Assembly (NCBI RefSeq): GCF_011745625.1
Contig: NW_027191465.1
Span: forward strand, 496,001-560,000
Length of the DNA: 64,000 nucleotides
Direction: 5' to 3'
Origin: Cladosporium halotolerans
Taxonomy: Eukaryota
The translations under genes and the position numbers were made by a program. The notes beneath the pieces are model-generated. The model was not told the DNA's origin, did not search any database, and was given only the letters and a program-made list of their open reading frames with translations. Below are positions 22,599 to 62,700 of this stretch, piece by piece. Numbering within the stretch: position 1 is the first letter of the stretch; each line of letters starts with the position of its first letter.

Positions 22599-23817
<1,219 letters not shown>

Positions 23818-35375: not shown

Positions 35376-38240
35376 ATGGAGAACAGCGTTACTCAGGCAG
35401 CAGAATCGACAGTAGACGCCGCCGGCTCCTCATCAGGAGCGAGTAGCGTCTACGCTGACGACATGTCCATTGACTGGGACGCCATAATCAAGGAATATGA
35501 CGATGAATTTGATCAGGAAGTGGGTCACATTAGGCGCCTGATGCCCAGGTACGTGAAGCGCCGACTGAAGGGTGCCCGAATTGACTGACAAGAGTAAGAC
35601 TGGTCGGACAACTTGTGCTCGGGTGCGGTGACTCCAAGTGCAAGAAATCTCAGTGTGCCACTGGCGCGAGGAATGCTACAAGGGCACCGACTCGGAACTA
35701 TAGTCCACGATCCGCCAGGATTGTCGCCTTTGCCTTGCTCAGTCGACCAGACCCCGACGCTTACCTCTGCGAGTACTATGAGGCGCGGATGCAAAGTGAT
35801 TCAACAGAGTCTGGCGAAAGACCTGAGCCTGAAGAGGGCCCCAAAGATCCGACTTCTCTCACTCAGCTAATGGCAGACACCGATTGTTTCAAACGTCTAG
35901 CTAGGGGCGAGCATGTCGAGAGCTTGACCAGACAATCCGTCGACCCAATCTCTCTTCGAGTCGCAGCTATCACTAGAAAACTGCAAAAATACCACGAGCG
36001 ACCTTTCCTTGATGATCAGACAGTCAACCCCCGCTTCGCGAGGAATCAAGAAGTGGCGGATGTATTGGCAGCCGCTCTCAGTCTGTTTTACGACATGCTC
36101 CCAGATAATGACCATCCTTCCGACTGGCAGACACTTGCATATTACGTTAATCACGGCCGCGCCACGCCTTCGCAGGGTCATGAAGCAGGACCCGGTCTCG
36201 CTGACGTGGACGCTCTATTGCGCGCGTTCGACTCTGACCAAAATGTTCGCTTGTGCTCCGAAATCTGCAAGGTCGTCGCTCTTCGCACACAGGTGGAAGA
36301 CGTCATGGTCAAGCCCAGAAGACATTCTTTGGGCACTGGCGGACTCTTGACGTATGTTGCCAATCATGTGGACAAAATTGCGCGCGCCCGAACAGCAGAC
36401 AAGCTTTCGAAGAGAACGGATGAGACCACTCCATGGGTTCCATGGCCTTATCCGCTCTGGTTCAAAAAGGCATTCATCAGGGACTGGGATGGATCACCAA
36501 TCGTCAAGCGCGGCTCGATCGCGTGCGGTGCTCTAGAGCTTTTGGAGATGCAACAGTGGATATGGAATCGCTGGCATCCAACCCGGACATCAGATGCAAA
36601 CCTGTTGCCTTATGTCTTTAAAAAGATGAACTTGACCGAGGCCATGCGGAGCTGGGCAACACAAAACCCTCCGTTGACTACAATGTCAAGGCATCTGCTC
36701 TCGTTTCCTTTCCTCTTCACAGCGAGTCAAATTCTCTTGTACTTTCGAATGCAGAATCACTTGCGGATGAGGTATGTTCTACGCCTGTTTCCTTGGATGA
36801 TTACATGGTTGACTTAAATTGCTCCAGGGAAGCGAACAAGCAAGCTCATGTCCATGAGGACATTTTTGATCGCCATGTGGCGACCAGCGATGCTGCGAGT
36901 GTAGAATGGGATGCGCGCTCTACTGAGGTCCAGCACCTGCGCGACTTTTACCTACTAGTGACCATCCGGAGGGAAAGAATCATTCAAGACGCCTTTGATC
37001 AGCTCTGGCAGCGCCGCAAGTGCGAGCTGGTCAAGCCACTCAGGGTCCGTCTTGGAGAAATGGAAGGCCATGAGGTCGGTCAGGACTTGGGAGGTGTTCA
37101 AATTGAGTTTTTCAACTTGATATGTACTGCAATTTTTGCCGAGGACAACGGTAACGTGATCACATACTCGAAGGCCACAATTACACCGCTAACAATGAGC
37201 CAGGAATGTTCTCTACAGACGCCATCACAGGCCTTTCCACAATCCGCCCCGGCAGCTTACAGCCTCTCTACATGTTCGAGTTATTCGGCTTGATACTCGC
37301 CCTCGCCTTGCACAACGGCATACCAATCCCCGTCAACTTCCCCCTGGTCTTCTACAAACAACTCCTCAACCAACCCTACGGAAGTCTCGACGACCTCGAA
37401 GAAGCCTGGCCCACCGTCACCCGCTCACTCCGCGCCATCAACGAAGGCGCCCACGAAGGCCTTGACTGCGAATTCCCCCTCGAAGCCAACGGCCTCCGCA
37501 TAAGCGTCGACGAACACACCATCGCAGACCTCCAAAGCCAACTCGCTCTCCAGCAACACACCGACAAACCCCAGCCCTTCACCCTCCAAACAACCGAAAC
37601 AACCCCCCTCGCCAACCCCACCAGCAACCCCCCACCCTCCCCCCTCTCCTGGCCCGGCTGGACCGTCCTCCCCCCCTCCCCATCCACCCCTCCACCAACC
37701 CCTCTCACCCCCCAAAACACCCCCGCCTACACCCGCGACTACGCCCTCTGGCTCACCACCCTCTCCGTCCTCCCCCAACTCCTCGCCCTCACCCGCGGCC
37801 TCCACACCCTCCTCCCCCCCTCCACCCTCGCCCTCCATACCCCCTCCACCCTCCGCTCCACCCTCCAAGGAACCCCCCACCTCTCGCTCCCCGCCCTCCG
37901 CTCCGCAACCCACTACGAGCACTACGCCCCCAGCGACCCCTACATCGCCTCTTTCTGGCGGATCCTCGCGCGCTGGGACGAGAAGGACCAGCGGGCCTTG
38001 CTCAAATTCGTGACGGCGGCGGAGCGCATCCCGATCACGGGCGCGGGCGCGCTGACGTTCAAGATCGCGGGCGCGGAGCGGCTGTGGGGCGCGCGGGAGG
38101 AGGACGAGAACGAGCTGCTGCCGACGAGCTCGACGTGTTTTGGCACGCTTTATTTGCCAAGGTACAGGGATGAGGAGACGCTGGAAAGGAGGTTGAGGGT
38201 TGCGGTTGAGTTTGGGGGGGTGGGGTTTGGGGTTGCTTGA
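35376..38240 (+). CDS. HECT E3 ubiquitin ligase (HUL4/E6AP-like, N-terminal AZUL-like Cys cluster); exons 35376-35548, 35599-36771, 36828-37150, 37204-38240
   Basis: Motifs QLVLGCGDSKCKKSQC, EVGQDLGGVQIEFF, LLKFVTAAERIP and LPTSSTCFGTLYLPRY (catalytic Cys). Three in-phase introns. Confidence 0.88.
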
Positions 38241-38800
38241 GGCGGTGTTGGTGTTTGGGATCGAGCGTGGGTGCGGAGGGCAGGGGAGGAGGGCGTTGGA
38301 GGCGGAGGGTTGGGGGACGATGGCTGGGGCGGACGCGCGGGGGAGGATTGGAGCGTGAGGCGAGAAGATGAAGTGGACATGAGGTGAGAAAGATTCTGAG
38401 CCTTGCATACTATCTTTCATGATCAAAAAGTCAAAACAAATCAAACAAACAAGCGAGCGTGGTAGTGCGCCGCAGAGCGGGTTCCCGGGCCATCGTTTGG
38501 TACATTGCACGTAGCAAAGCAAAATCCCCCATCCAGTGGTAATAGTAGTAGTAGTAGAAAACTCCGATCACAAAAATTCATACTTGCCAACGGCACCAAT
38601 GGTTCGTTTCCCTTTTCGGAGTCATTTTCCGTTGTTCGCCGAATATCGCCGTTCCCGCGCTTCCCAATCTGCGTATTTTGTCGTATCGTTAAAAGGCCCG
38701 CCGCTTGCTACCTAGTAGCAGCGGCAACCATCTTGTCCCTGCAACAGCAGTGGCCACTCGAAATCGTCTACTCGCACAATGCAATCGGAAATCGCATCGC

Positions 38801-41275
38801 CTAAGACGACTTCTGCGAGCCACCCAGCTTCTTCAGCACGCGCTCCCAGCTGTCCTGCTCAAACAGGAGGTGGCCCTTGCCCTCCGGCTCAGGCGGACCC
38901 GCGTTGTCGCGCTCGTTCTCTTCCTTGGTGCGGCCGAGCTTCTTGAGGGCCTTGTCGACGTGGTCCTGGTCGACCATGACGCCGGACTCGGAGCAGCGGG
39001 CTTTGGCGCGGAGTTCGGAGCAGAGCCCGTCGAGGTCGAACTTGCCGTCTTGGAAGTCTTGGTTGGATTGCAGTTGGGACCTAGAAAGGTTGTTAGAAGC
39101 GAGCATCTGGAAGGAGAGTGGAGGAATTAGAGCGTACCATATGCTGTTGCAGCTGATGAGCTTGCCGGAGCTGTCCTTCTTCATGTTTGTAGGGGTGCTG
39201 GCTTGGCCGTTGTATTGCTGCTGTTGCTGTGACTGGATACCTTGTTGAGGCTGCGTGTTGGGCAGACCGTAGTCGTCGTCTCCGCCGTCTCTGGTCTTGT
39301 CGATTTCGGCCATGAGGTTGCGGCTCGGAGCCGGGGTTGACTGCTGGCTCGGCTGCGGCAGATTTTGCAGGATGCCGAAAAGATTGCTGGGCGAGGAGTA
39401 GTCAACGGGTCCTGTGTTGAGGGCATCGTCGAAGAAGCCTCCGCTGAAGTCATTGCTGAAGATGTTGTCTTGGCTGGTATCTCTGTAGTCTCCAAAGAGC
39501 ACAGGGTCGAAGGAGTCGAGCTGGGGCACGTTGTAGGTTGGGTTTGCATTGTTCATGTCGAAAGCACCAAGATTGTTGTTCGCATACTGAGAAGACATGA
39601 AAGCATTGTTCGTATTCGCGGTCGCATTCGCATTGTAGGTGTTCTGGAGATTCGTCTTGTCGTAGCTCTCGGCCGACTTGTCCTTGTTTTGCGGGCTCTC
39701 ATGGGAAGGCTCGGGCGATGTACCACAAGAACTATTTGTGGTACCGTTGGCATTCCACTGACTGAGAGAGCTCGCACTCGGCGAAGCACTGTCGCTGGTG
39801 TTGCTGGTGCTGTTGAAGCGGAAGACGCGGTTGTCTGGGATGCCAGCTGTCGTGTCGCCACCATTATTGTTGTTGTTCTGGCCATTCCGATTGTTGAAGT
39901 AACCATTGTTGGACTGATTGACCGTCTTAAGTATGCTGGGGCTGAAGAGGTCGCCGAAAGGATCATTTCCGTTGCCACCCATCTGAGGAAGAGTCGTGGC
40001 GAAGCCGTGCATGTTGTCGTTCGTGCTGTACGGGGCGAAGTTGTAGTTGACGGCTCCGTTTAGAGATGCGGAGTTGGCAGGGCTGCCAGTGTTCGAACCG
40101 TTGCTCTGCAAGCTGCTGGGACTCTGGCTGTTAATTTGGCTGTTGCTGTTGCTGTTGGCACGGTTGAGCATCGGCTGCTGAGCTTGTGTTCCGTATGCAA
40201 CATTGGCACCAGGTGACTGGTTTGGGACTGGAGGCGTGACGCTACCACGCTGGCTGTTGTCGGCGCTTCCGCTCTGAGAGCCATTGGGGAACATCTGGCT
40301 GCCTGGAAGGGCGCCAAACTTGGGAAAATCGAACTGGAAGTTGTTCTGATAGTTTATCGAGCCATTGCCGGCTCTAGAGTGCCCACCATAGGTCGATGAC
40401 GGTGGCGAGCCTCGACCGGTTGTGCCATTGAGGGAGAGGCGTTTTCGGTAATCCTTGAGCTCTGTCTGGAGACGGTCGACCTGAGCTTTCAGCAGGCCAT
40501 TCTCATGTTGATCGGCCTCACGAGCTTTGGCAAGCTCCTCCACTCTGGTCTCCAAGTCTTTCAAATGCTTCTCCTTGCGCTCTCGGAAAGCGCGCTGCGC
40601 AGCGCGATTTTGTGCTTTTCGCTTCTGCGTGGGCAGTCAGCAAGTGCAGGTTTACGGGGCAACTCTGGTCGATGAAAAATGAAGGAATCAAATTGTGAGA
40701 CGGGAAAGAGGCTCGGGTGCGCAGTGTAGTGCAAAAGAGGTACAGAGATGACATTGTTCGTGCAAAGAGTGCGATCTTACCGTCGTGGGCTCGTTTGTGA
40801 GAGGCTTCCTACCAGGCTTCTTCGAGCCCTTTTCACCCTCCTGCAACTCTTGACGCTTCGCATCGCCTTCTTCTGGCGATGCATTCTCATCGGGGCTTTT
40901 GCGCTTGTCGTGCTGCTCGGGCTGGCCGTTGGCATCTAGGCCGGGAAGCGCGCCGATCATCTCACCACCCAGATCGGCATTGTCAAAATCGAAGCTGGCG
41001 TCGCCGTCGAGGTAGTCGAGGTCGGGAGTGAAGTCGGTAATGAGAGCGTCCATGTTGGCTGGACTCTGGTACAAAGCGCCGCCGCTCATGGGTTTGGAGT
41101 CGCGTTGCACAGCAGCGGAGCTAGTGGGATTTGTAAGGCCGGTATCGCCGACTGAAGGGTTTGCGCGCGGTTTCTTTGTCGCTTGAGAGTTGAGAGCGGC
41201 GACGAGAAGGTCTTGCTGGTTGGGAGACAGATATGGGTTGAATTGCTGGGTCTGTTTGGGTGGCTGACTGGCCAT
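38801..41275 (-). CDS. YAP1: AP-1-like redox bZIP transcription factor; exons 41275-40781, 40624-39138, 39080-38801
   Basis: LSPNQQDLLVAALNS, bZIP KKPGRKP..T|KRKAQNRAAQRAFRERKEKHLKDLE, and c-CRD CNSIW|SQLQ..DLDGLCSELRAKARCSE. Confidence 0.96.
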
Positions 41276-41315
41276 TGACTGGTGGTGTGCGCTGCGCTCG
41301 AGATTGATGGACGGT

Positions 41316-41591
41316 CTACTCAGAGTGAGGTCATCAGCGCCGACGTTCGACTCCAGACTGATGAGCAGCGGGCTGGGGACGGCGATGATGTCAAAGGGTG
41401 GTGGTGGTAGGAAATTGAAACAAGTGAGAGTAGGACTGAGGATGTAAGACGAGCGAGATGGCCTCAGCCGCAGGCGGCGCAAGAACGCGACGGGGGTGTG
41501 TGCACTGTGTGGTGTGGTGTGAAGGCGGGGTCGGCGAGCCAGAGAGGAAAGGCGTGGGCGTGGGCGGAGGCGGACGAAGGCGGAAGCTCAC
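41316..41591 (-). other. Predicted 5' UTR intron of YAP1
   Basis: Minus-strand AAG|GTGAGC donor at 41591, GCTGAT branch, and TAG acceptor ending at 41316, 40 nt before the ATG. Confidence 0.55.
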
Positions 41592-43271
41592 CTTGCGAAT
41601 GCGCAGCCGTCTGGCACGTGTATGGCTCGCCTGGAGGGACGATTGGGGTCGGGACAGGCAGCGGCGGCGGTGGTATGATGGGAGCGTGGGTGGAGGTGGA
41701 GGAGGAGACGTCAGAGAGGAAGAGCGGCTACGACACGAAGTGAGCAGGCCGGGGCGCGGCGAGGAGGGTCTGCGGTCTGCGGGTTGGTGCACGCAAAGAT
41801 CCTGCAACGAGGGCAGGGCCTGAGGGCGCGGTGGAATGGCCCTCCGGCTAGAAGTCTGGCACGCGCGGTGATTGGAGAGGCAGCAGGGTGTTTCGTGGGG
41901 TTCTCGACCTTCAGCGTGGATTACCAATCCTCCCAGCCTGCTCTGAGACTAGAGACGTCGCCGGCCTTCCATCCGCGTCGGCCTGGCGCGGAAAGGCGAC
42001 TAGAAGCCGCTGGCCGGACCCTGCGCCGCGCTTTGTGCTCCCTTGCCCTCAAAGAGACCAATTGCGAGTCAGTTGCCTCGTCCTTGTTCGTCACCGCCTG
42101 TCTGGTGTGCGCAGTATAGGGTACAGTATGTACATTCGTATGTGCAGTAGAGCCTTATCATGCCGGTCTGATGTCCTTGGCTGCTTGACTTCAAGTACAA
42201 CGTAGGAGGAGCTGGTGGTAAACGCATGCCTCGCATGCCAGGCTCCGGGACCGAGAATCCGGGTTCAACAGTCCAGCATCCAATTGCAGACTTGAACTCA
42301 ATTCGAAGTGACAACACAACTTCAATCTCCCCTACCGAGCAGTGTACCAGTCTGTCTCCGAAGACATCATTCGCCCTAGAGAGGTCTTTCACCTGGAACC
42401 ACCGTCCCTCCCATGCTGTTGTCTGTGGAAGGCGCGCGAATTGGGTGGGAGAGGATTGAGGTATTCTTTGCCCGCTCTGATCGCTCTGTTCTACAGTTGT
42501 ATCGACATGTACAATGAACAGGATCATTAAGAACCAGATTGGCATCCAGAAAGCGATCTTTCGTCTGCATTCAGTGGCTCGTGTGGCTCGTGCTGGTGCG
42601 GCAGATGAGAAAATACAGGTAAACACTCCTTTCCTCGCTGACGTCTGTAGTACAGCGGATCGGAATAAAGTGGATTGGCGTTGTCTTTGTGTTCCATCTG
42701 AGGGATTGATCAAGAAAAGACAACGGTGTTTGTGGGTGTATTGGTCAATGCCATGTTGCGGCGGCGGACATCGTCCCGTGTTCGCAGTCTGATATACGAG
42801 CTGAAAGTATGTGGCGTCGCATGATCAGAGCCAGTATGGATAATGGGAGGCTCGAGTCTGAGGGTAATGATAAGAAGCTGTTTGGCTATTTCGATCATTT
42901 TGAGAACATCAAGGGTCAAGATGTATGATCGTCAGCTCCAAGATTGATAAGCAATTTCTGCTAATGAGCGAGAAGTGAGGTGCAAGCCACAAACTTTTGG
43001 TGAGAGGCATTCACGCGCCCCGCGTTTTGTTCGCCCTTCCGCGCGTGCCTTCCTCGTCGCATCACGAGCGTTGCTCACAACTTCGCAACGACACTCTTTC
43101 ATTCGATTCACACACCACCATCCTCCTGTCACTACATCTGCATCCTCACCGCGCGGCCGTGCTCCGCAAAACGCGCTCACCACAACAAGAACGCCGAGGC
43201 GAAAGGAAGAAGAAGCGTAACGTACTTGAATCAGCCTCTACTTCCACTTGTGTACGGCTACTAAAGTCACG

Positions 43272-44174
43272 ATGAGCCAAACCGCCAATCTCGACCAGCT
43301 TCAGGAGGAGCTGTCCTCCCACTACGAACTCCTCGCACAATATGACGAGCTCCTCACTCTCGCGCCAGACGACGCCGAAGTCCTGAGCGAGAGAGCCAAC
43401 GCCCAGTCCGAGATCGCAACCCTCGAAAAGCGCATCGCAGCCGCCAAACAACCCAGCAGCCAGGCCGACGCGACCCCTCCGCCGCCCAAATGGGATCCCA
43501 CAAAGCACCCTAAGTTCCGCAAGGCCTCGCCCGAGGCGCCGCCTCCCCCACCCCCCGCCGACGACACGCCCACCGTCTTCAACGCCAAAGACCTCGTGCT
43601 CGCCAAGTGGAGCGGCGACAAGCAATTCTATGAAGCGACCATCATCACCAAGACCGGCAGCTCCGCAGACCCGGTGTACACCGTCAGCTTCAAGATCGAC
43701 AACTCGACCGAGACGAAGCGCAAGCACGAGGTGCGCGCGATGCCCGGCAAGAAGCGCAAGGCGGACGCCGCAGCGCCCGCCGCGCCCTCGATCCCGCCGC
43801 CGCCTGCGCCGGCCGAGCCGGGCACCATCTCCGCGCCGCCCGTCATCGACAGGGCCGCCGCGCAGCGCAAGGAGCCCAGCATGGTCAGCGACGGGCCGAC
43901 GCGCATGCAGCCGGAGAAGAAGAAGCTGAAGGGCGGCAAGGTGATGGAGAACAAGAAGGCCAACTGGCAGAGTTTCATGCAGAACGGGCCGAAGAAGGCG
44001 AGCGCCGCTTCGGGGCTGTCGAAGCCGAAGCAGTCGATGTTCCGCACGCCGGATGCGCCGAACGCGAAGGTTGGGGTTGTTGGGTCTGGCGCGCCGATGC
44101 AGAAGGATCAAGGGAGGGCGAAGTGGGGAGGTGGAGGTGCTAATGGGCGCTGGGAGGGCGCTGAGGAGGATTGA
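43272..44174 (+). CDS. SPF30: Tudor-domain splicing factor SPF30/SMNDC1-like
   Basis: N-terminal coiled coil, Tudor-like VLAKWSGDKQFYEATI..YTVSF, and C-terminal KANWQSF..SMFRTPD..KVGVVGSG. Confidence 0.85.
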   Translation: MSQTANLDQLQEELSSHYELLAQYDELLTLAPDDAEVLSERANAQSEIATLEKRIAAAKQPSSQADATPPPPKWDPTKHPKFRKASPEAPPPPPPADDTPTVFNAKDLVLAKWSGDKQFYEATIITKTGSSADPVYTVSFKIDNSTETKRKHEVRAMPGKKRKADAAAPAAPSIPPPPAPAEPGTISAPPVIDRAAAQRKEPSMVSDGPTRMQPEKKKLKGGKVMENKKANWQSFMQNGPKKASAASGLSKPKQSMFRTPDAPNAKVGVVGSGAPMQKDQGRAKWGGGGANGRWEGAEED

Positions 44175-45609
44175 GGTGGGATAGGAGGATTGGAGCAAAC
44201 ACGACACTAATGATGAGGCTGTACGCGAGAGGTCGGTTTTACGGGGGTTGCAGTCCTCTGGGGAGTTGCAGTCCTCTCCAAGCGCTCAACCACCTGAGCA
44301 GCTGTATGCGGCAGTGCAGATACACTGGCGCTACCACGGGGACGGAGGTCATCTTATCCCTCGCCACGGGCACATGAGAAGTATCCATATATCCAGTTCT
44401 ATTCGAATACATGCTGAGTCAAACGCGCAGTTCTCGCTTCTTCTCCATGTGATGTCAGCTTGTTGTCTCGCGCGAGTATTAGCTGCATTCTCCCTCTTCT
44501 CTTCCTCTTGTCCGGCATTGTAGAGCTGGGTAGGAGGGCAGCACGAGTTTGCGTAGTGTATGAGGGGTAAATTGTAGTAGTTGTTGCTTCAAATGTGGTC
44601 CGTCATGGTCGATCACAACATTCGATAAGTTGTTGTAGCTTTTAACCGATATCAGCTACACGTTGCACACACGCTTTTTCCCAATGTAGGTCCATTTCTG
44701 AGTTCCTGGTGAATATGGTGGTAAGTCATGATCGATCGCAACGTACGAGATGTTAGTTCTTCGTCAGCCAGGATGGAGACGCAAGGCCGCAGTCATGTCG
44801 TACTCGGGGTCTCAAAGCACAGTGACCTACTCAAGTGGGGGCAATTGTAAAACGATCGAAATCAGCACCAGAATCACCTTCCCTCACATATCGGACGCTG
44901 TAGCATGTTTCTGAATTATTGGTCGTCTCACTGAATGTCAAAAGCTCATGACAAATTGTCGTTCACTGGTTGGCAATTGGGAAATATATCCCGTGAGACT
45001 CAGTTCACCACTACCCCAACGCTAACCCTTGTAAATCCATCGCTCGCGGTTTCCGACACCTCTAGCTCGCCTATCCACCGCGTGATATTTCCAATCTCGA
45101 TAAAGACCTGCAATCTATAGCTACGGGAAGAATCACGGTAAATGCTCGAACAAATAGCATTCAGCAATGTGTCTAGGTATGTCTCCCACTGTGGATCACT
45201 CCCACCACGACCCCGCGCACATCCCCCACATGGCTTCGTGGCTTCGTCTGCCGTTGCCCTAAGCCGCCTCCAATTCCGCTCTTGACCTCATCTCTTCTAC
45301 TACCGAACAGCCCCGCCCGAGGCTGGTCTTGGGGAGGAGGAGGCTCGTAAAGCAAAGGTAGGAGGTATTGTTTCCGCTGTTTCCTTTGTCTTCATTCCGC
45401 ACCCATCAACATAAAAAGGCGAGGTCTTCTTTGCTTTCGCACTCGGAAAGACACTCGCATCTTGTACACGACGCAATTGCTGTCTCGCTGAGTCTCTCGT
45501 GACGATCTCCTGTCTATAGCCTCGTCTTACACCACGGCGTATCTACATCTACCTGTCGTCGTTTAATCCAAAGAATCAACTCCACGCAACTCCTATCCCT
45601 CTCTTCACA

Positions 45610-46744: not shown

Positions 46745-46880
46745 GAAAGGGAGAACGGGATTGGATCATGGCGTTCGTTGTGTATTTTTTCTCTAGTATG
46801 CAGGGTATCTTGCTTTTTCCGTCCCATGATGTCGTGTATATGCCGTCGTATCTTTTATCTCTTCAGGCCCAGCAGACCCT

Positions 46881-51971: not shown

Positions 51972-51991
51972 TTACCTTACCTTACCTTACC
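51972..51991. repeat. (TTACC)4 pentanucleotide microsatellite
   Basis: The sequence ttaccttaccttaccttacc is directly visible. Confidence 0.8.
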
Positions 51992-52913: not shown

Positions 52914-55761
52914 TTACACATTCTCGCCATAATCGGCATAACTCGGCGGCTGAATCGTCACCGGCACCGTAAACTCATACTCCTCCCTCGGCCTCGGCAG
53001 CGTCTCCACGACCGCCGCCTTGCCCTTCAACTCAAACTCCACCACCGCGCGCGCGTCATTGTCAAGCGCCAACTTGTACTTCCCCGGGTAGATGACCATA
53101 TCCCCATTATCATCCGCGCGCGCCAACGAGCCCAGCGAAAGCGGCAGATCGACCGTCTGCTTGCCGCCGCGCGGGCGGAGATCGTGCGCGCGGGCGTACG
53201 AGACGAGGCGTTTGAGGGGCCGCGGGGCGGGGCCGGCGTTGGGGCTCGAGAGGAAGAGGAGGGCGGTGTAGTCGCTTGTGTGGCGCCGGCCGGTGTTGGT
53301 GATGTGGGCGCGGAGGGTTGTGAAGGGGATTGTGTCGGGGAGGAGGTGGGGTGACGTAGAGGAGGAGTGGGCGGCGTGGAGGAGTTGTTGGATGTTGTAG
53401 GATTTGCGCGGGGGGTGGGTGAGTTTGGTGGCGAAGGTGGTGTAGTGCAGGCCGTAGGCGAAGGGGAAGACGGGCTTGCCGGTGTACCATTGGTAGGTGC
53501 GGCCGGGGTAAGTGGCGTTGGGACGGAGGTTGATGTCGTAGATGCTGACTTCGTCGTTGTATGCGGCGGGATACTGCGTGATGGGTAGGCGGCCGGCGGG
53601 GGATTTCTTGCCGGTGAGAATGTCGAGGATGGCGGTGCCGCCGCTTTGGCTGGGGTATCCGACCCAGAGGAGGGCTTTGACGTTTTTGTTGCGGACGAGG
53701 GCGGTGTCGTCGACTTGTCCGCCGCCAAATTGGCAGACTACCACGGGCTTGCCGGTGCCTGCGAGCCGTTCGATGAGGTCGAGCTGGTTTCCGGGCCATT
53801 CGAGCGTCTCCCTGTCGTTTGTCTCGCGCTCGAGAGTGTTGTCCAGACCGCCCATAAAGATCACCACGTCAGCGTCCTTGGCTGCAGACACCGCAGCATC
53901 GAAGTCCTCGGTGCTGTTGGAGTTGATACCAGTGCCCTCTTCGTAAGTGACGTCCCACATGCCGTAGCCATTGAGAGCCTCCAACGGGCTGACAATATGC
54001 CTCGGAGTGCCAGAGTAAGCGCCCTGCATCTGCTCCGTCGCATTGCCGTAAGGTCCAATAAGCGCGACCTTCCGCTTCCGATCACCATCCAGAGGCAAGA
54101 TGTCCTTGGTGTTCTTCAGAAGCGTAATGCCCGCCACAGCGGCTTCATAAGCCAGCGCGTCGGCCTCAGGCGTGGCGACATCAGACCAGCCTACTTCGGC
54201 ATACTTGCCGCCATCGAAGAAACCAACAGTGAAAAGAGCGTTGTAAAGCCTCGTCAGTGCCTCGTCCACTCGAGCGACAGTGGTCGTATTGGCGGCGAGA
54301 GATTCGTTGAGTCGGACGTATGTGTTACCGCAGTCAAGATCTGTTCCAGCATTGAGAGCCACGGATGCCGCGTCCTCAGCGGTTTCGGTGAAATTGTGCC
54401 AGTCAGTGATGTCGCCAACAGCACCGCAGTCGCCGACAACGTAATGGTAGTCGGCGGTGAAGTTCCAGTGGTCCCTCAACACCTCTTCGAGCAGATATTC
54501 GCTGGCACAGGAAGGGATACCGAGTACGGCGTTGTAAGAACACATCACGCTACCGACATGTGCCTCCTGGATGCAAGTCTTGAAGGGTGCAAGGTAGTAG
54601 TCGGCAAGATCCTGCTGCGTAGGGTCATAGTTGTTGCCATACCGGCCAGTCTCGATGTCATAGACGGCATAGTGCTTGCAGGTGGCGATGATCTGCTTGT
54701 TGTCGAGGTCGTCGCCCTGCAGAGCCGGGACGAAGTTGCGGATGTAGTTCTGCACGTGCAGCACGTCTTCGCCGGGCGTCTCTTGGCCTCTGCCCCAGCG
54801 TGGGTCGCGGAAGTTGTTCATCTGGAGTAATTGTCAGTCAAGATCAGCGGCATATAAACCACCTCCACAACTTACGTTCGGCGCCCAGTAATCAAAGCCC
54901 GCATACCCATTATTTCCAAATGCCCTACCCTCCCTCCCAACAACCTCCCCAATAGCCTTAATAAGCTCATCATCAAACGCAGCCGCGTAGTGAATCGGCG
55001 AAGGGAAACTCGTAGCATAGCTGAAATTGTACCCCTTTGGAGTAAACTGCACGCCCGGCGCCGAGCCAACGCCATGCGTCGCCTCGCTCCACCACTCGTA
55101 CGAGGGCAGACCGATCCTGCGCGCGCCGGCGGAGGCATCCACGAGGTTGAGGATCTTCTCCTCCAGCGTCAGATCGCCGACGAGCGAAGCGACGCGCTCG
55201 GCGACGCTCAAGCTCGCATCGCAGATGCCGCGCGAGCACAGGGGGCTCGTCTGGCACGCCGGCGTGAACAGGTCCGCGCCGATGCTGGCGTTGCCCTGCG
55301 GGTTGTCGACTTGCAGGAGCGTCATGCTATCCGATCCATCCGATCAGCTTTCTATCCCAGGACCCAAGGGCAGGAAAAACTCACATATAGCCCCCACCGC
55401 ACTTATTCCCCGGGTCCGTGACGCACGGCTGGCACCTGCTCTCGTCGATCTCGTTCGCATTGCCGAAATCCGGCTCATTATCGCAAAAGCACTGCGTGCC
55501 GAAATTGATCCCGCCGTAGGCATACCCACGCTCGCCGCACCAGCTCGCGCAGTACGAGGGCGTCATGGCGATTGTGCTGAGTTTCGCGGCCGACAGGATG
55601 CTGACGCTGCTGTCGTTATAGCAGCCTAGGGTGGTGAAAGTGGCGTTGTAAGCTGCGGAGGAGCTGGAGGAACACTGCGAGGCATCATTTTGGGCGTGGG
55701 CGAAGGGCGCGAGAAGGAGAGGTGCTAGAGACCAGGGGAGGAGGTGTTTTGGGGGGGCCAT
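52914..55761 (-). CDS. Secreted GH3 beta-xylosidase-type glycosidase with N-terminal WSC domain; exons 55761-55385, 55326-54876, 54821-52914
   Basis: Signal peptide and WSC (LGCYND..MTPSYCASWC..YGGINFGTQCFC..CGGG). GH3 motifs WWSEATHGV, FRDPRWGRGQETPGED, CKHY, MCSYN and GDCGAV. Two in-phase introns. Confidence 0.93.
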
Positions 55762-56181
55762 GGTGGTGGACGCCTTGGAGGTTTGGAGCAGCGTTGGGGC
55801 GTGAGTTGTTGCTGGAAGAGGGGAGCCATTGTAATATATTGAGAGCCGGTGTGGCCAGTCCTGACGATGTCTTGCATTTTACCGCACTCTGGGAGCACCT
55901 CCTCATCGCTTGGCCACGCTAGAGAGCATAGTTCAATCCATCGATGCATTGACGACGGACCTCCAGCAGGGAGCCGTCGAGACTTGTCGTCATTACGTCT
56001 TACCTCCTGCAGCAAAGCAGTCTAAACATCAGGCTGAATGCCCTAAGTGCAGCTCGGGCTATGCCGTGCGATCGCCATCAAGCGAGAGAGGAAGCATGAA
56101 GTCAAAAAACGCTCTGGTTGTAGAAGGAGGAGGAAGCGTTCCCCGCATGAGACCCAGTTTTCCGTCGATCGCGGCGTGAGA

Positions 56182-56189: not shown

Positions 56190-56568
56190 ACTTCACTTCA
56201 TCGACCAGGGTCGCCGTTTATAAGAGGAGATACGGCTTGGCGGTTATGACTGTGTTAGAGTTCACTCAATTGCGATCTCCAAAATACAGTACCCATCGTA
56301 AATATCAATGATCCAACGTATCATACACACTGTCCTGTCTTGATATAGTGACAATAACGAGTTCGCAACATCCCTATCCCCATCCTTCGCATGCACCATC
56401 GTCAAAGCCCTGAGGCCCGGAGTAAAACAGAGGACTAAAATTATCAGAAGACCGAATAAACCCAACGCCTCGCTAAAAGGAAAGAAATAAAGAAAAATTC
56501 AACCCCTCAGAAAAACCAACCAAACCACCCAACAAAACCGAATTCCCAACATCAATAACCCTCCCCCT

Positions 56569-58914
56569 TCAAGCCCCAACCCCCCCAACATCCCCCCAAA
56601 GCCTCCTCGCCACAGCCTCCACACTCTCCTCCTCCCCTCTCTCCTCCTCATCCCGCCCCTCGCCCCCAACAAACGACACCCCCCTCTGCGGGCCCCTCCT
56701 CCCCTGCCCCTGCACATTGACCGAGCTCCTCGAACTCTGCAGCCCGGCCGGTGCACCCACCGGCCCGCCCTTGAGCGGACTCCCGCTCAGCCCCTTCTCC
56801 GCCGCCGCGCCGCTCACGGCGCGCGAGTGCAGGCCCTTCTTGCCCCCCGCCGCAGCCGGCAGCGAGACGGCGCTCTTGCTGGTCCGCAGAGCCGCCGCGT
56901 GCACTTTCTGCGGCGAGCGGCTGAGCCTGCTGCCCTTGCAGGCGCGCAGGCGGGTGAGGGACTCCGCGAGCGGGTCGCGGAACTTCTGCACGACGCGGAG
57001 TTCCGTGTGCACGGCCTTGAAGCGGCCCTGGAAGATCTCCGGGCCGAGGGAGAGGTTGGTCGAGGCGGAGTTGGCGAGCGTGTTGGTGCCGGTGGGCGTG
57101 ACGGAGCCGCCGTTGGTGGCGGCGGCGGCGTTGCTGAGGGCGGCGAGGTTGAGGTAGGATTTGAGGGATTCGTTGCGGCGGTCGTAGACGTGGGCGGGGA
57201 TGAAGGGGTTGCGGTCGACGGCGGAGTGGATGTCGGCCATGGCTTTTTCTTGTAGCATTTTGAGCTCGGTGCGCGAGCGGCCGAGGGCTGGGGTGGCGGT
57301 GCCGGAGGAGCCGGAGATGGTCGAGTTGCCGGGGCTGATGGGCTCGGGGTGCTGTTGGGAGGTGTGGCGGGAGTGGTTTTTGTTGTGGCGGTGCATAGAG
57401 CTGTCTGCTTCAGGAGTGTGGAAGGAGGACATCTTGGGTGTATTTTGGGTGGTGGTTGGGTTGCTGCCGGTGTATGGATGTGACGTGCTGGGGATGAAGC
57501 GAGAGACGAGCTCTTGTTGCTCGGCGTCTCCTGCTGAGGCGGAGCCAGTTGACAGCGTTGATGTAGCGGGCGACCCGCGAACGCTATGTGAGCTGTCCAG
57601 GGCGTTCACGTTGCTCGTCATCGCTGGTGCAGGTAGAGTGCCGCTAGCATTCCTCAGATATGGCATGGTCGGGTTGGGGTGCTCCCTCGCCGCATGGAGC
57701 GGACTCCTCGGGGGTTGAGAGATCTTCGGAGGCTGCTGTCTTTCTGATATCGGCTGCTTAGGTAGCTGCAGTTCTTGCGGCTGCTGTCGCTGCTCTTGCG
57801 CAGGCTGTGAAGTAGGTCCTGCAGCCTGTGGTCTCGGCTTGACAGTGCTGCGAGGGCTGGGCGTCTCGTCGTCCTCCTCAGTCTCGGTCTCAGTCTTCTC
57901 CTCGTCTTCGTCATTCTCCTCAACACTCGACTGATGACCCTCCTGCTGCACCTCCGGACGCTCCACCTGCACCAGCCTCTCCGGCAGCAACGCCCCCTTC
58001 CCAACCACAACCGGCACCCTCTCAGCCGACCTGTCCTGCACCACACTCTCCCTCCGCGAATTATTCGCCGTGTTCTGCCTCGTGCTATACGGGCTCGCGC
58101 TCGTGCTCTCCTCTGTCCAATCACCCTCCTCCATCCCGTGCCCATCCATATCGACCGCCTCCTCGTCAGCACTGTCGCCCGAACTCCCGACCGCAAAACC
58201 AACCTTCTTCGGCCCTCCGCCGCGCTCCCTCTTCTCCGCCAGCCGCTGCGCCAGCTCGACCTCCTGCTCGTGCAGGTCCTTCTCCAGCGCCCACTTGCTC
58301 ATGTCGGCGCTCTTGGGCCGCTTGCTGCGGCCCTTGAGCCCCGGCGAGGGCGGCGCCTTGCCGCTGCCGCCCAGCGCGGCCAGGTTGCCGCGCGAGTTGA
58401 GCCGCTGCAGCGCGCCGTGCGAGTGGTTCTTCTTCAGCTTCGTGTGCGACTGGTTCCGCGAGAGGTGGTAAGACGTCATGTTACGGCGCATCGCGGGGCG
58501 CTGCTGCTGCTGCATCTGCTGCTGGAGGACGGGCGTGCTCTCGTCCAGGCTGCCGGGGAGCCGGATCTCGGTGTCGTTCTCGTGGCTGCGGTTGCGGCCG
58601 TGGTGGTTCTGCGGCTGCTGGTGCTGGCGCTGGGCGGCGGCCTCGTGCGCGCGGCCCATCTTGGCCAGGTTGCGGCCGCTGGAGTGGTTGCGCGGCAGGA
58701 CGATGCGGGCGTGCTTGCCGCTGCGCACCGGGTGCCGCAGGGCCTGCTGGCCCTCGGGGTGCGAGCCGGGCGAGACGGCGTCGCGGACGGCTTGCCTCGT
58801 CTGCCCGGAGGTGGAATGGCTGGAGTGGCGCTTGGGCAGGCCGGGGCGCGCTGAGCCCGTGGAGGCTTTGGGCGACGAGGGCATGGCGGGCGCGGGCGAG
58901 GAGGCGCTCGGCAT
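56569..58914 (-). CDS. Disordered protein resembling TORC1 subunit Tco89
   Basis: ATG at 58914 in a GCCATG context. RSRTELKMLQEKA, TELRVVQKFRDPLAESLTRL and C-terminal ARRLW resemble Tco89-family blocks as I recall them, not searched. Confidence 0.65.
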   Translation of the reverse strand: MPSASSPAPAMPSSPKASTGSARPGLPKRHSSHSTSGQTRQAVRDAVSPGSHPEGQQALRHPVRSGKHARIVLPRNHSSGRNLAKMGRAHEAAAQRQHQQPQNHHGRNRSHENDTEIRLPGSLDESTPVLQQQMQQQQRPAMRRNMTSYHLSRNQSHTKLKKNHSHGALQRLNSRGNLAALGGSGKAPPSPGLKGRSKRPKSADMSKWALEKDLHEQEVELAQRLAEKRERGGGPKKVGFAVGSSGDSADEEAVDMDGHGMEEGDWTEESTSASPYSTRQNTANNSRRESVVQDRSAERVPVVVGKGALLPERLVQVERPEVQQEGHQSSVEENDEDEEKTETETEEDDETPSPRSTVKPRPQAAGPTSQPAQEQRQQPQELQLPKQPISERQQPPKISQPPRSPLHAAREHPNPTMPYLRNASGTLPAPAMTSNVNALDSSHSVRGSPATSTLSTGSASAGDAEQQELVSRFIPSTSHPYTGSNPTTTQNTPKMSSFHTPEADSSMHRHNKNHSRHTSQQHPEPISPGNSTISGSSGTATPALGRSRTELKMLQEKAMADIHSAVDRNPFIPAHVYDRRNESLKSYLNLAALSNAAAATNGGSVTPTGTNTLANSASTNLSLGPEIFQGRFKAVHTELRVVQKFRDPLAESLTRLRACKGSRLSRSPQKVHAAALRTSKSAVSLPAAAGGKKGLHSRAVSGAAAEKGLSGSPLKGGPVGAPAGLQSSRSSVNVQGQGRRGPQRGVSFVGGEGRDEEERGEEESVEAVARRLWGDVGGVGA

Positions 58915-59751
58915 GGCGGCGGTGGTGTGCTGTCGCGATGGAGGTCCGCCTCGCGGGCGCGGGTGTGCGGCCTCTTCAGGGTGTGTCGTCGCGCGGCCAA
59001 CGGACGGGCGGGCAGTGCGCAGATGGAGTGCGGCAGCAGTCCCCGGTCGGCGAGGCTTGTCCGAGCGGCTCGTGGGTGCTGCAGGCGGAAACGTGGGCGG
59101 CGCGCAGTCTCGCGTGGGCGTGGGCGAAGGGAGGGCGGCGGTGACGGGCGTGTGCGACGTGCGAGGCGTGGCGTGAGGCGGCGGCGCGGTGTTGGTGTGA
59201 TGCAATGCTGCGTGAGGGTGAAACCGCGTGCGTGGTATAGAATGGGTGTTATTAGTAGAAGCTCGGCGGTGTTGGGTGTCGTGGGTGTTTCCTCGCTCTT
59301 GCGCTCCCTGGCATGGACGGAGGTCTTGGAGCAGTGCGAGTGGCCCGCGGCGTCTCTTTCTCTGGGGATGATGGGTGAACGACCGACCGCGGCCGCCCGC
59401 CCGCCCGCCAGCTCGGTGGGTGGGTCTGCCACTCTGCCGTGGAGAGCGGGCGGGCAGCCTTATTTTCTCACCCGCTTGGTGGGCTTGCAGCTGCCACCTC
59501 CATCGGGCAGGTCCACACCGCGAGTGTGTCTGTCATGTGGGATGGCGTCCAGTGGTATACCTACAAATACGTAAAACAGGATCTCTGATTTGCAAATATG
59601 GAATCCTCCGCAGCCAGCTGATTTCATAAGATAAACGACAATACAGCTGTATACATGTTCGGCATCTCTATCATATGGCTGTACTAGTTCCAGCCCAGTA
59701 TCAGCATCAAAACCAGCATCAATAATAATTACACCCTCCTCTTCTCGTCAA

Positions 59752-62700
59752 TCAACTCTTCTGCGTCTGCGCCTGTCCTCTCCCCTGACTCTGTCCCCGC
59801 CCACCAGCCTGCTGCCCTCCTCTCCCCCTCCCCCTCCCACCACCACCACCACCACCACCACCCCTCTTCCTCCCCTGTCCCTTCCTCCCCGCACCCCCCT
59901 TCGCACTATCCCTCCTCCCGCTCCCGCCCCCCATCTCCTCTTCCTGCACCCTCCGACTCTCCCTCTCCCACCACTCTTGAAACTCCTGCTCGGCCTGGAT
60001 TTCTCCCAGATCGCGCTTCGCGACCGCCTCCTGCAGCAGCTCCTTCTGCCTGCGCTCCTGCGCCACGATGTCGTCGATGCTGAGCTGCAGCGAGGGCTCC
60101 GCGGGCGCGGGCGAGTGGCGGATGCTCTGGGGGATGGGCTTTGAGTTGGAAGTGCTCTGAGCGATTGGGCGCGGGGCGTGGTTTTCGGGTAAGCTGTGGC
60201 GGGCGCTGGGGCTGGCGATGATGGGTTTTGGCTGAGCTTGTGGCGGTGGGGGAGCGGGTTTGGGGTTCGCGACGGTTTGGCGCATGGTTAGGTGTGGAGT
60301 TGAGGCGCGGTGCGTTGGCGGCGGAGGAGCGGAGGACTGGGTGTCGATGACGTCTTTCAGCGAGGGCACTTTCTGCGCGGAGACGGTTTGCCAGGGCGAG
60401 CCGCGTGCGGTGGAGGAGTTGAGTTTGCTCTCGTTGAGTCGCGCGGCGGATTGGGCGCTGGCGGCCTGTTGCTGCTGGAGCATCTTTTTGCGCTCCTTTT
60501 GCGAAAGTTTGGGCGCTGGGAGGCTGAATGGAGAGGCGCTGGGTTTCTCTGCGGCGGCCTTTTGCGATGCTAGGCCCTGGGACAGGGATGATGTCCTGCT
60601 GGAGGAGGCCTGCGCCATGATGTCCTTGAGGCCTGTCTTAGACGATCCTGCCAGCGGTGTGGCGGTCCAAGGCACGCCGCCACTGGGAGGAGTCCTGCCG
60701 TTGAGCAAAGGCGACTTTGGCGTGCGAGGCGTCATCGAACCCGGGATGGACGACTGCTGCGGCCTGAGAACCGGAGACGCAATCGCCTTGCCTCGCGAAT
60801 CAAGCCATCCTTCATCAGCAGGCGAGCCCGCAGGGATCGAGTCCAGCTTGGGCGTCGACATGGGCTTGATCGCGGGAGAAGGGCCAGGCGAGCGATACGA
60901 CGAGCTCATCTCTTCGTCCATAGAAAACATCATATCCTTCGAAGAAGCCTTCGCTTTGAGCGAAGGTCGGTCGTCATCCGCTTTGCTAGCGATCGCCGAA
61001 CCGCGTCTGGGCTTCTGCGAAGGCGAGTGAGTGCCGTCATCGCCGACAGAGCCGGGCGCGAAGAAGTCAACGTCTTGGTACTTGGAGCGAAGCCTGACAG
61101 AGTCAACCTTAGCCTTGCGGTTGCGCTCAAGAATAGCGGCAAGCTCCGGATGTCGCTCGTGCAAGTCTTCCTCGGCGCGGCCGCTCTTGGCGAAAGGCAT
61201 GCAAGCAAGCTGATTTGCTTGGACGACTTCATCGAGTTCTTCCAGGAGATCTTCGTCAAGTTCATTGAGATGGTGACCTTGCAGCATAGCCTCCAAGCTC
61301 AAGCACAGGTACTCCAAGCTGGCGTGCTTGAACTCGTGCACAGAGCTGGGGGAGATGGCGTTCAGCAGCCAGCAAACGTTGCGCGCGTTGACGTAGCGGC
61401 CTATCACAGATTGGCAGATCTGCGACAAGCGTTCGAGCATCAGCTCGTTAGCTGCGCTGAGGACATCCAGGACCACATCAAGGAACTCATCGAGATCAGT
61501 GCTCGTGATACCATCGAAGAGCTCAGCTCCTGTATCGGCGTAGATGTGGCGGAGCACAAGGTTGAAGGTGTCCATCGTGATGTGCGAAAGATCGACCGTG
61601 ACGTCTTCTTCATCTCGCCCAGCAAGCCAACGCCCACCAGCACGACCCATGAAGAGGCCCTCGAAGAACGGACAGCGAGTGCAGAGAGGCACGCTGTGTG
61701 CTCGGACCTCGCCGTCTTCCAGCTGAACGATGAGATCGGTGTCTTGGAAGAACGAAGAGTCTTTGTAAGCTGATTCAAAGTCCATGTCCATACAAGCCCG
61801 CGGCTCGATCATCTGGCGAACGGCGGGCTCCAGTTTGACGAGCTCTAGCTTGGCAGAGAGCTTCATCAGCTCGGTGCGAACCTGGCGATACCTATATGAC
61901 ATCTGCTGCGCGTTGCGGATGTGCCAGAACTCGATGATCTGATCGATGTAGAGGTACAATGCCAGGTCGACGAGTGACAAGATGTCAAAGCCCTGGAAAG
62001 TGAGGACGGTGCGGCCCTCGCCATCAATCTCGACGGAAGCAGCGTCAGGAATAGCCCATACTTGGCCTTGTTCAGTCACATCCGAGAGACCTCGTCGTAG
62101 CACCTTACTCCTGCCAGTGAGGAGAAAGCGGTGTACCGGGATGCGCAGCTCGGAACTCGACGTAGCCAGAACCGCATCGTACTTCGCGGCAGAGTCATTC
62201 ATGGCCCGCTCGCAGATATCAGCAAGATCCTTCTCCAGATCCTTGCTCTCTAGAATCGCGCGTCTGAGCGTCTGCATCTCATCGGGCTTCCGGTTCCCCT
62301 GCCAGAAGCGCGGCCTATCCTCAGCGTTCATCTCCGCTTGCTCCAACCGCAAAGCCAGCGGTCTCAGAGCGAAAAGCGGAAGGTACTGCTTCCACAGCGT
62401 TTGGTCCTCCACCACAATCTGCGTCTTCGTAACGTCGCAGTCTCGCCTGACCGCAGCGTAGGCGCCGTGCGCCGAAGCTCGAACAGCCAGCACGCGGGTC
62501 AAACCCGGAATGCGAGAGAACTTGTAGTCCTTCGGCTTGTACTCACCCGTGCCAGATGCAGTGGCGTCCTTGATCTTCGCGCGCTTTGTGCGCTTCCAGA
62601 CACTACCTTCCTCGGTGGTGAGGAGGATCGAGCCGTCTGCGTCAACACCGACGTCGCGGGCCGCCATATTGCCCGTCTTGAGGGACCAGATACACACAGG

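Follow-up and report, generated by a model that had tools for sequence, protein, structure and literature searches.

The 64,000 nucleotides of Cladosporium halotolerans DNA considered here (contig NW_027191465.1 of assembly GCF_011745625.1, positions 496,001 to 560,000 of the forward strand; in the following, the window) raise the question why the + strand switches time and again, within units of about 1 kb, from a C-rich arm through a CG-dense centre into a G-rich arm. An earlier note, made from the letters alone, had listed 15 such units, had described them as independent of gene orientation and had proposed origin-like replication, recombination hotspots or selection on RNA structure as possible causes. 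The units are indeed real and striking, and they are tied to gene ends, mostly to a position a few hundred bases before the stop codon. They are probably the locus-level form of the gene-anchored GC skew of fungi, the cause of which we infer to be a transcription-linked bias of mutation or repair. The results refer to this one window of 64 kb with about 21 genes and, for comparison, to 15 ORFs on contigs of related fungi.

The window is fungal nuclear DNA, as documented by protein families and intron joints; its gene content and its sparse, short introns suggest an ascomycete. A Pfam search of 34 long open reading frames (ORFs) yielded family matches in 21 of them, including PAP1/bZIP, HBS1_N together with an EF-Tu-type GTPase, MAT1, purine nucleoside permease, GH3, GH64, HECT, RCC1/BTB and lysophospholipase. 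RNA-like contigs from three public runs contain short GT..AG or CT..AC joints of 54-64 nt plus some longer ones; this RNA evidence consists of assembled contigs, and contig ends are weak markers of RNA ends. A DNA contig from a relative that is ~97% identical covers positions 45064-55741 in one piece, with 320 other letters and 28 gaps. Since a single contig of the relative spans this interval, the composition of the units is not an assembly artefact.

Shape of the units and their anchoring to gene ends

The run from C-rich through CG-dense to G-rich sequence was recovered in all 15 listed units. The left third is always C-rich (+ strand GC skew -0.17 to -0.68), the middle third has a GC content of 0.57-0.72 and an observed/expected CpG ratio of 1.05-1.48, and the right third is G-rich with a skew of +0.29 to +0.56 in 14 cases, the unit at 46870-47480 reaching only +0.03. 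That the arms are nearly devoid of G or C holds true for the five strongest units (37400, 46870, 50200, 56500 and 59750), in which the minimum share of G per 100 bp is 3-8%; in the others it amounts to 9-20%.

Skew in 200-bp windows has a standard deviation of 0.239, as compared to 0.133 (maximum 0.140) in 200 shuffles that kept the regional composition over 2 kb. With a strong switch defined by arms of 300 bp that have a skew below -0.25 on one side and above +0.25 on the other, the 64 kb contain 12 upward (C-to-G) switches vs. 0.22 expected and six downward switches vs. 0.05 expected. Upward switches coincide with peaks of GC content (mean 0.676) and downward switches with troughs (0.511; Mann-Whitney p=0.0012). 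In the mean profile of the 12 upward switches, skew is maximal 200-300 bp from the centre and gone by ~500-600 bp, a shape of decay that is partly favored by the 300-bp arms used for calling. At unit cores, GC content is 0.67-0.68 vs. 0.52-0.58 in the flanks, and GC content at third codon positions (GC3) reaches 0.9-1.0.

The relationship of the units to genes became apparent when the skew of the coding strand was aligned at 20 stop codons, fixed beforehand from long ORFs, most of them with family support. Skew lies at -0.21 to -0.25 from -800 to -300, is ~0 at -300 to -200 with a zero crossing near -250, rises to +0.22 and +0.35 in the last two 100-bp bins of the coding sequence (CDS), falls to +0.26 over the 100 bp that follow the stop and is ~0 thereafter. 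This holds for most individual genes: 17 of the 20 are negative at -800 to -500, 17 are positive in the last 100 bp and 18 are positive just past the stop. The same curve was obtained when ORFs were chosen by length and third-position GC periodicity only (19 ORFs). The units thus cross the boundary between CDS and untranslated region (UTR), as had been proposed, the G arm reaching ~100 bp beyond the stop codon.

Nine of the 12 strong upward switches are located 150-600 bp upstream of a pre-listed stop, a zone that makes up 14.1% of the window (P=3.2e-6), and ten are near stops once a 21st stop is counted, that of a small - strand gene at 50269, which was recognised only after the set had been fixed (switch 50427). 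All 12 reside inside gene bodies, ten of them 158-563 bp upstream of a stop. Conversely, five of the six strong downward switches are intergenic, and the sixth lies in alternatively spliced HBS1 sequence. A leave-one-out template of the stop-anchored profile correlated with the + strand skew with r=0.625 over the 226 covered bins and r=0.474 over all 640, the best of 1000 random template placements giving r=0.221. Among the 96 bins with an absolute skew of at least 0.4, 61 belong to the stop-covered zone, and 56 of these 61 have the predicted sign. For the 5' end, the first in-frame ATG served as an approximate start codon; the 100 bp ahead of it have a mean skew of -0.27, and 15 of 17 genes are negative there. 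When the 15 listed units are sorted accordingly, 11 are 3'-terminal or cover whole short genes, two are situated at the 5' ends of long genes (MAT1, GH3) and the remaining two are internal (HBS1-like gene, 987-codon ORF).

With regard to the apparent independence from gene orientation, the underlying observation is correct: the units are dyad-symmetric in composition and have the same polarity in + and - genes. However, a couplet of a C-rich and a G-rich arm is its own reverse complement and therefore must look alike on the + strand for genes of either orientation, so that equal polarity in + and - genes, tempting as the inference is, cannot show independence of genes. Such a unit fits a rule that is fixed to the direction of transcription, and it is the stop codons that anchor most of the switches; the claim of independence is not supported.

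Synonymous and non-coding sites retain the skew. The strongest values belong to fourfold-degenerate sites, where skew passes from up to -1.0 to +0.9 within one exon. Over the 20 genes, these sites have a skew of -0.50 in the interval 160-250 codons before the stop and of +0.41 within the final 40 codons. The share of C at these sites is 0.55-0.59 at 120-250 codons upstream of the stop vs. 0.33-0.39 further in, the share of G is 0.45-0.46 in the last 80 codons, and GC content at fourfold sites (GC4) climbs to 0.75-0.80 and drops to 0.64 in the last 40 codons. Eight long ORFs alone show a rise of GC4 from 0.54-0.59 to 0.72-0.79 and a skew of -0.5 followed by +0.37 in the last 40 codons, and the fourfold profile is therefore not a mixture of different genes. 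The first 50 nt of the 3'UTR have a skew of +0.39, and seven introns follow the local skew, with +0.19 to +0.33 for three in G arms and -0.12 to -0.66 for four in C arms; the positive values are unusual for fungal introns. AT skew and GC skew at fourfold sites are anticorrelated (r=-0.95 over 10 distance bins), AT skew of the coding strand going from ~+0.2 in the C arm to -0.11 past the stop. The arms are therefore C+A-rich and G+T-rich, as single-strand transitions would give. The force in question acts on DNA or RNA sequence and not on protein, and the description of the units as a local, strand-asymmetric footprint on nucleic acid stands.

Proteins are nevertheless affected. In comparison with the region 160-300 codons upstream of the stop, the last 80 codons are enriched in Gly (12.4% vs. 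5.7%), Val (8.3% vs. 4.9%), Trp and Glu and depleted in Thr (4.9% vs. 8.6%), His, Asn and Ser. C-termini turn Gly/Val/Arg/Glu-rich and upstream segments Pro/Thr/Ser-rich. Single loci illustrate how strong fungal gene-end skew can get, with synonymous sites changing from all C to all G within one exon. The C arm inside the HECT domain (37540-37720, +) encodes a Pro/Thr/Ser/Leu-rich stretch. The domain match comprises 347 residues vs. 296 profile positions, so that skew-driven low-complexity sequence appears to be inserted into this conserved domain.

Gene-end skew is also present in relatives. When metagenome contigs were scanned with the HBS1 exon, fungal loci (L001-L011) with 78-87% amino acid identity were obtained. 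The relatives' contigs exhibit a similar sawtooth of smaller size, with standard deviations of 0.12-0.20 and 0-5% of windows beyond 0.4 vs. 10% in the window studied here. Their stop-anchored profile runs from -0.31 to +0.27 (15 ORFs, some of them mutual orthologues and thus not all independent). Six orthologous HBS1 exons were compared, with amino acid identities of 81-82% for three of them and a saturated fourfold-site identity of 0.27-0.32. The internal couplets of the HBS1-like gene were not seen in these orthologues, which have mostly C-ending codons, a GC3 of 0.5-0.7 vs. 0.7-0.9 in the window and no comparable oscillation (rho 0.11-0.49, none significant), so that these couplets are either confined to the lineage of the window or much weaker outside it. 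Pooled substitution counts against the ~97% identical relatives (X5 and X15; 40 of 726 differences listed) were symmetric and uninformative. A four-taxon alignment of relatives supported one topology with 115 sites vs. 36 and 27 for the others; at compositional equilibrium, such an alignment does not tell mutation bias from fixation bias.

Candidate causes of the couplets

On the reading that we prefer, the coding strand of a transcription unit starts C(+A)-rich around the start codon. Within its last 0.3-0.9 kb, a strongly C-rich stretch is followed by third positions that are almost all G or C, and the gene ends in a G(+T)-rich stretch over the last ~80 codons and about 100 nt of 3'UTR. A short gene has room for one unit; a long gene has one at its 3' end and often another at its 5' end, with an interior that is flat or ripples only weakly. 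The most likely cause would be a strand-asymmetric, transition-type bias of mutation or repair, by which A>G and C>T changes would accumulate on the strand that becomes G/T-rich. At gene ends, this bias would follow the successive phases of transcription, to which antisense transcripts entering from the 3' side may contribute; a GC-favouring force near gene ends would underlie it, and selection for C-ending codons would override it in a few genes. Strong couplets, as we read the profiles, adjoin convergent as well as tandem neighbour genes, so that read-through from a convergent neighbour would not suffice as the cause.

The context of residual C on the G-rich strand was examined in 121 bins of 100 bp with an absolute skew of at least 0.35. 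TC and CC contexts are ~15-40% rarer there than in unskewed DNA, CCG excepted (observed/expected for TCA 0.77 vs. 1.24, for CCT 0.62 vs. 0.92), and C in GC and CG contexts is retained. This may hint at dipyrimidine- or TC-targeted loss; being confounded by codon structure, it is a lead only.

A number of observations weigh against a transcription-linked bias. Distance from transcript ends accounts for most switches, but 35 of the 96 extreme 100-bp bins fall outside the stop-anchored zone and some units are internal. Two of the 12 strong switches (48026 and 49284) are of this kind, both in the HBS1-like gene. Units do repeat within one gene (HBS1, 987-codon ORF, GH3 and a kinase gene), as the earlier note had seen, and weaker internal couplets occur in the 987-codon ORF, the kinase gene and the RCC1-BTB gene, the last of which qualifies the otherwise largely true statement that the interiors of long genes are free of units. 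The last fourfold window is clearly positive in 13 of 19 terminal ORFs and zero or negative in five, i.e., those for an eRF3-like protein (-0.8), glyoxalase (-0.4), PAP1 (-0.1) and MAT1 (0.0) and a 959-codon ORF (-0.1); we infer that selection for C-ending codons overrides the bias in some of these. Furthermore, the G arm has its maximum at the stop codon and is lost ~100 nt later, while RNA contigs, the ends of which are weak evidence, reach ~200-330 nt past stops. The G arm thus does not seem to coincide with the termination zone, and the same problem is raised in the survey of fungal genomes by McLean and Tirosh (2011; PMC3315797). That survey also describes a correlation with expression that is only weak (R about 0.07-0.10 in C. 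albicans) and AT skews that are flat along genes and correlate positively with GC skew, the opposite of the relation in the window. Lastly, one transcription-linked asymmetry alone cannot flip its sign within one transcript. The sign flip of the couplet, the intragenic couplets, the GC3 peak at the core and the lineage-specific intensity remain unexplained by this reading.

The position of the downward switches brings in another process, the main rival, which we consider possible, if rather unlikely. Meiotic breaks would arise in AT-rich, nucleosome-free spacers, i.e., at the boundaries of the units, and loss of C and A from the strand exposed by resection, together with GC-biased conversion, would make the gene-end skews a recombination footprint. 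Left of a break, it is the + strand that resection exposes, and right of it the - strand, so that the left side would turn G/T-rich and the right side C/A-rich, while conversion would raise GC3 within a tract of the break. The 5' C bias, the 3' G bias, the higher GC3 toward gene ends and the flat interiors would then follow without recourse to transcription. The flanks of human hotspots as described by Hinch et al. (2023; PMC7615360) have just this polarity (G/T-rich, break, C/A-rich), which is that of the downward switches, and five of the six strong ones are intergenic and sit on GC troughs. Of 12 spacers, 11 have a G-rich left flank and eight a C-rich right flank, irrespective of how the genes are oriented. 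GC4 is raised within ~250 codons of stops, also within long genes, skew fades toward the interiors of long genes, and the asymmetry is of the G+T vs. A+C type. The weak link to expression described in PMC3315797 would be easier to accommodate as well.

However, breaks in spacers predict one sign per flank, yet the stronger C arm of the HECT, GH3 and RCC1-BTB genes and of the 987-codon ORF is found 300-900 bp inward from the 3' spacer, and a C arm beyond a G arm would need intragenic hotspots that act one-sidedly. Tight C-to-G switches are twice as many as G-to-C switches (12 vs. 6), and skew peaks beside the cores. In addition, the strongest skews flank convergent, terminator-only spacers (+0.49/-0.50 between the 2OG and HBS1 genes). 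Such spacers are not known to be break hotspots in budding yeast. Between the left and right flank of a spacer, skew amplitudes show no significant correlation (rho 0.34, p=0.28, n=12); the correlation between 5' and 3' amplitudes of the same gene was not significant (rho -0.13, n=13). If spacer breaks were responsible after all, the couplets would constitute a sequence-only map of recombination initiation, those in the HBS1 GTPase domain, the 987-codon ORF and the RCC1-BTB gene would mark intragenic initiation sites, and the scar would be intense enough to drive fourfold sites to -1 and +1 and to rewrite protein tails.

Among the alternatives in the earlier note were hotspots of recombination or breaks that are centred on the CG-rich core, where conversion would be GC-biased. 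GC and CpG do peak at the cores, GC3 is 0.9-1.0 and a width of ~1 kb is tract-like. The flanking polarity is wrong, which makes this version very improbable: the left arm is C/A-rich on the + strand, where loss of C and A is expected from the human hotspot flanks in the part of PMC7615360 referred to above. A T:G-specific repair bias on the invading strand would, by our reasoning, give the wrong sign too, and all 12 strong upward switches lie in gene bodies and not in open spacers.

Replication origins with a leading/lagging-strand skew of the bacterial type, the lead reading of the earlier note, would likewise turn the + strand from C/A-rich to G/T-rich, and it is in this sign alone that they fit. 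Origins in fungi are spaced by tens of kb. With eleven units within 23 kb and 12 strong switches over the whole 64 kb, the window is far too dense in comparison, the skew decays within about 500 bp so that no replicon is filled, and the switches are tied to stop codons. We give this explanation practically no chance.

Selection at the level of nucleic acid structure was weighed in two forms. In the first, which we hold to be improbable, the couplets themselves are selected, the G arm favouring hybrids of sense RNA with DNA and the C arm hybrids of antisense or read-through RNA, together forming a two-way brake or insulator between packed genes. G clusters scanned from -1000 to +500 around stops are distributed in agreement with this idea, those on the coding strand concentrating at -200 to +100 (21 of 26) and those on the template strand at -700 to -300 (25 of 39). 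Genes are closely packed, with spacers of 137-808 bp, and one RNA contig spans the convergent 2OG and HBS1 genes. According to PMC8327920, antisense R-loops of plants lie mainly around the transcription start site (TSS), a region in which plant coding strands are rich in C (Fujimori et al., 2005; PMC555766). Against such selection, the G arm is centred on the stop codon and not at or past RNA ends, for which contig ends are poor markers, a few genes (eRF3-like, glyoxalase) manage without a G arm, and couplets also exist deep inside genes. Hybrid-prone regions in budding yeast are described without a GC-skew pattern in the cited part of PMC4911931.

In the second form, C-arm/G-arm fold-backs of the RNA or G-quadruplexes would be selected. 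The arms are complementary in composition, and predicted folds contain 56-157 arm-to-arm pairs per 600 nt. These numbers are no higher than in block shuffles, though, and folding is about equally good in whole-sequence shuffles; the mean z over 10 units is -1.0 relative to shuffles of 50-nt blocks, the unit at 50427 being the sole one that folds clearly better than these shuffles (z=-3.9). G-quadruplex motifs are fewer than composition predicts (17 vs. 30.3 +/- 4.7). Overall, neither folding nor motif counts give an excess, and selection of this kind is next to negligible as an explanation.

Individual units and adjoining sequences

The units are compiled in Table 1 together with the genes to which they belong.

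Table 1. Skew units of the window, ordered by position. Strand refers to the gene; distances are from switch to stop codon; series of numbers are, unless stated otherwise, fourfold skews along the coding sequence; "additional" denotes units outside the list of 15.
Position	Strand	Unit and gene	Landmarks	Basis and remarks
12200-12960	-	3'-terminal couplet, purine nucleoside permease gene	stop 12209; switch 12472, 263 bp before stop	Pfam NUP, 1.6e-130
17800-18500	+	5' couplet, MAT1 gene	first ATG 17919; C-rich around start, G-rich from ~+300	Pfam MAT1
21500-22180	+	3'-terminal couplet, lysophospholipase (PLA2_B) gene	stop 22185; switch 21938, 247 bp before stop	Pfam
22600-23000	-	3'-terminal couplet, aldose 1-epimerase gene	stop 22599; switch 22772, 173 bp before stop	Pfam; additional
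27850-28680	-	couplet over 329-codon ORF	stop 27830; switch 28393, 563 bp before stop	no family match
37400-38380	+	3'-terminal couplet, HECT E3 ligase gene	last ORF 37155-38240; switch 37967, 273 bp before stop 38240; G arm enters 3'UTR	Pfam HECT, 2.5e-55; per 50 codons -1.0, -0.9, -1.0, -1.0, -0.9, +0.3, +0.9
43300-44200	+	single couplet over short gene	exons 43106-43221 and 43277-44174; switch ~300 bp before stop 44174	weak Tudor_3 match; GT..AG joint 43221/43277 in RNA contigs; -0.4, -0.4, -0.1, +0.3, +0.6
45600-46760	+	single couplet over 2OG-Fe(II) oxygenase gene	exons 45610-45913 and 45978-46744; switch 46345, 399 bp before stop	Pfam; intron joint 45913/45978; -0.8, -0.4, +0.3, +0.7, +0.8
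46870-47480	-	3'-terminal couplet, HBS1-like GTPase gene	stop 46881; coding-strand G arm strong, C arm weak	Pfam GTP_EFTU, HBS1_N; GC skew of last 300 bp +0.3, +0.6, +0.6
47650-48320	-	internal couplet, conserved GTPase domain of HBS1-like gene	switch 48026, 1145 bp before stop	not explained by gene ends; whole HBS1-like exon -0.8, -1.0, -0.5, +0.2, +0.7, +0.2, -0.5, -0.6, -0.4, +0.4, +0.6, +0.3
48500-49500	-	5' couplet, HBS1-like gene	switch 49284	overlaps alternatively spliced sequence; additional
50200-50830	-	single couplet over small gene for putative secreted, glycosylphosphatidylinositol (GPI)-anchor-like protein	gene ~50269-50628; switch 50427, 158 bp before stop 50269	translation with signal-peptide-like start, Ser/Thr-rich body and hydrophobic GPI-signal-like tail; no family match
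52960-53720	-	3'-terminal couplet, GH3 beta-glucosidase gene	stop 52914; switch 53172, 258 bp before stop	Pfam GH3; gene end ...-0.8, -0.9, -0.9, -0.7, 0.0, +0.6
54850-55820	-	5' couplet, GH3 gene	first ATG of 5'-most ORF at 55761	includes two introns sharing the local skew
54822-54875, 55327-55384	-	introns, GH3 gene		coding-strand GC skew +0.25 and +0.33
56500-57500	-	3'-terminal couplet, 987-codon ORF	stop 56569; switch 56857, 288 bp before stop	no family match
57900-59400	-	second, upstream couplet in 987-codon ORF		GC3 up to 1.0; upstream half -0.5, +0.2, +0.1, +0.6, +1.0
59750-60600	-	3'-terminal couplet, RCC1/BTB gene	stop 59752, ORF leaves window; switch 60066, 314 bp before stop	Pfam RCC1, BTB; gene end -0.5, -0.2, +0.5, +1.0

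Two of the genes that carry more than one unit are accompanied by RNA contigs of some interest. In the HBS1-like gene, competing joints are present between 48322 and 49165 (- strand), namely 48959/49133 (173 nt, CT..AC) and 48322/49133 (810 nt, CT..AC), the latter of which would take out 637 nt that the former retains. An odd third joint, 48599/49165 (TA..TG), recurs in all three RNA runs. In run X2, the contig 47655-48641 is covered ~8 times as deeply as adjacent ones, and the matching depth bin is raised in X15 as well; the loose ends of the odd HBS1 RNA contigs found no match within the window. In the case of the 987-codon ORF, RNA contigs bridge 57418-58341 and 56786-58708.

The skewed arms also give rise to long spurious open frames of 175-380 codons antisense to real genes, i.e., at 37425-38567 (-), 43146-44285 (-), 45959-46765 (-) and 50165-50692 (+). 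They exist because arms that are nearly free of G or C contain few stop codons. They encode low-complexity sequence, could be mis-annotated as genes and may thus mislead gene callers.

A further G-rich block on the + strand (41200-42000, skew +0.26 to +0.41) is located upstream of the PAP1-like bZIP ORF on the - strand, in a region with two - strand introns (40625-40780 and 41316-41591). The PAP1-like gene probably has its 5' leader here, which would be long, rich in C and interrupted by introns.

Two intergenic stretches, 42891-43016 and 44447-45064, are replaced by unrelated sequence of similar length in the ~97% identical relatives (121 or 86 letters for 124 or 87, and 704 for 616). They constitute hypervariable spacers among otherwise collinear genes.

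Comparison with known systems

Replication-associated skews in bacteria and the skew domains of eukaryotes extend over tens of kb to Mb and are independent of gene ends. The units in the window share with them the sign of the switch and the asymmetry of G+T vs. A+C, but measure ~1 kb and are tied to the ends of genes.

In human DNA, GC skew at the 3' ends of genes is reportedly linked to R-loops and termination, in work said to date from 2012 and 2013, including that of Ginno in 2013. The non-template strand in the window likewise has a positive skew with G clusters near the 3' ends of closely packed genes. In contrast, the human 5' skew has the opposite sign, and the G arm in the window is centred on the stop codon and not beyond the poly(A) site. 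Within the collection of papers searched, a query on GC skew, R-loops and termination in filamentous fungi found no fungal work, and one that joined GC skew with Spo11 and meiotic recombination in fungi found no paper using the term "GC skew".

At human recombination hotspots, the forward strand is described as carrying C>N and A>N changes on the left side of a break and their complements on the right side (Hinch et al., 2023; PMC7615360). This asymmetry resembles the units in that it is dyad-symmetric, extends over a kb scale and affects C and A on the exposed strand. Unlike in the window, its polarity fits the boundaries of the units and not their CG-rich cores, and a flip of sign within a flank is not predicted.

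An excess of C over G on the coding strand around the TSS is reported for plants and fungi by Fujimori et al. (2005; PMC555766). The skew of the window just upstream of the ATG is of this kind; the TSS is the sole concern of that comparison, whereas the dominant signal here is the 3'-terminal couplet.

By far the closest match is the skew described for fungi, many filamentous ascomycetes among the species listed, by McLean and Tirosh (2011; PMC3315797). Their coding strands are C-biased at 5' ends and over much of the gene and G-biased at 3' ends, the G bias being strongest at the stop codon, reaching into UTRs, appearing at fourfold sites and altering amino acid use. The cause is left open in that paper, with phase-dependent mutation or economy of cytidine triphosphate (CTP) as candidates. 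All these properties recur in the window, from the 5' C bias and the 3' G bias that peaks at the stop and enters the 3'UTR to the fourfold sites and the C-terminal amino acids. The differences lie in the extreme values of single loci (fourfold skew of -1.0 to +0.9 within one exon), in a C bias that is sharpest just before the switch and forms a tight couplet together with a GC3 peak, in the recurrence of couplets inside some genes and in an AT skew that opposes GC skew (r=-0.95) instead of being flat and positively correlated with it. Fungal gene-end skew itself is already known; it is the amplitude, the tight couplet with the GC3 peak, the relation of AT to GC skew and the intragenic couplets that set this locus apart. 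It is by virtue of this amplitude, the GC3 peak, the G+T vs. A+C character and the intragenic repeats that the lineage makes a good test case, suited to deciding between transcription-linked mutation, recombination in spacers and selection for RNA:DNA hybrids.

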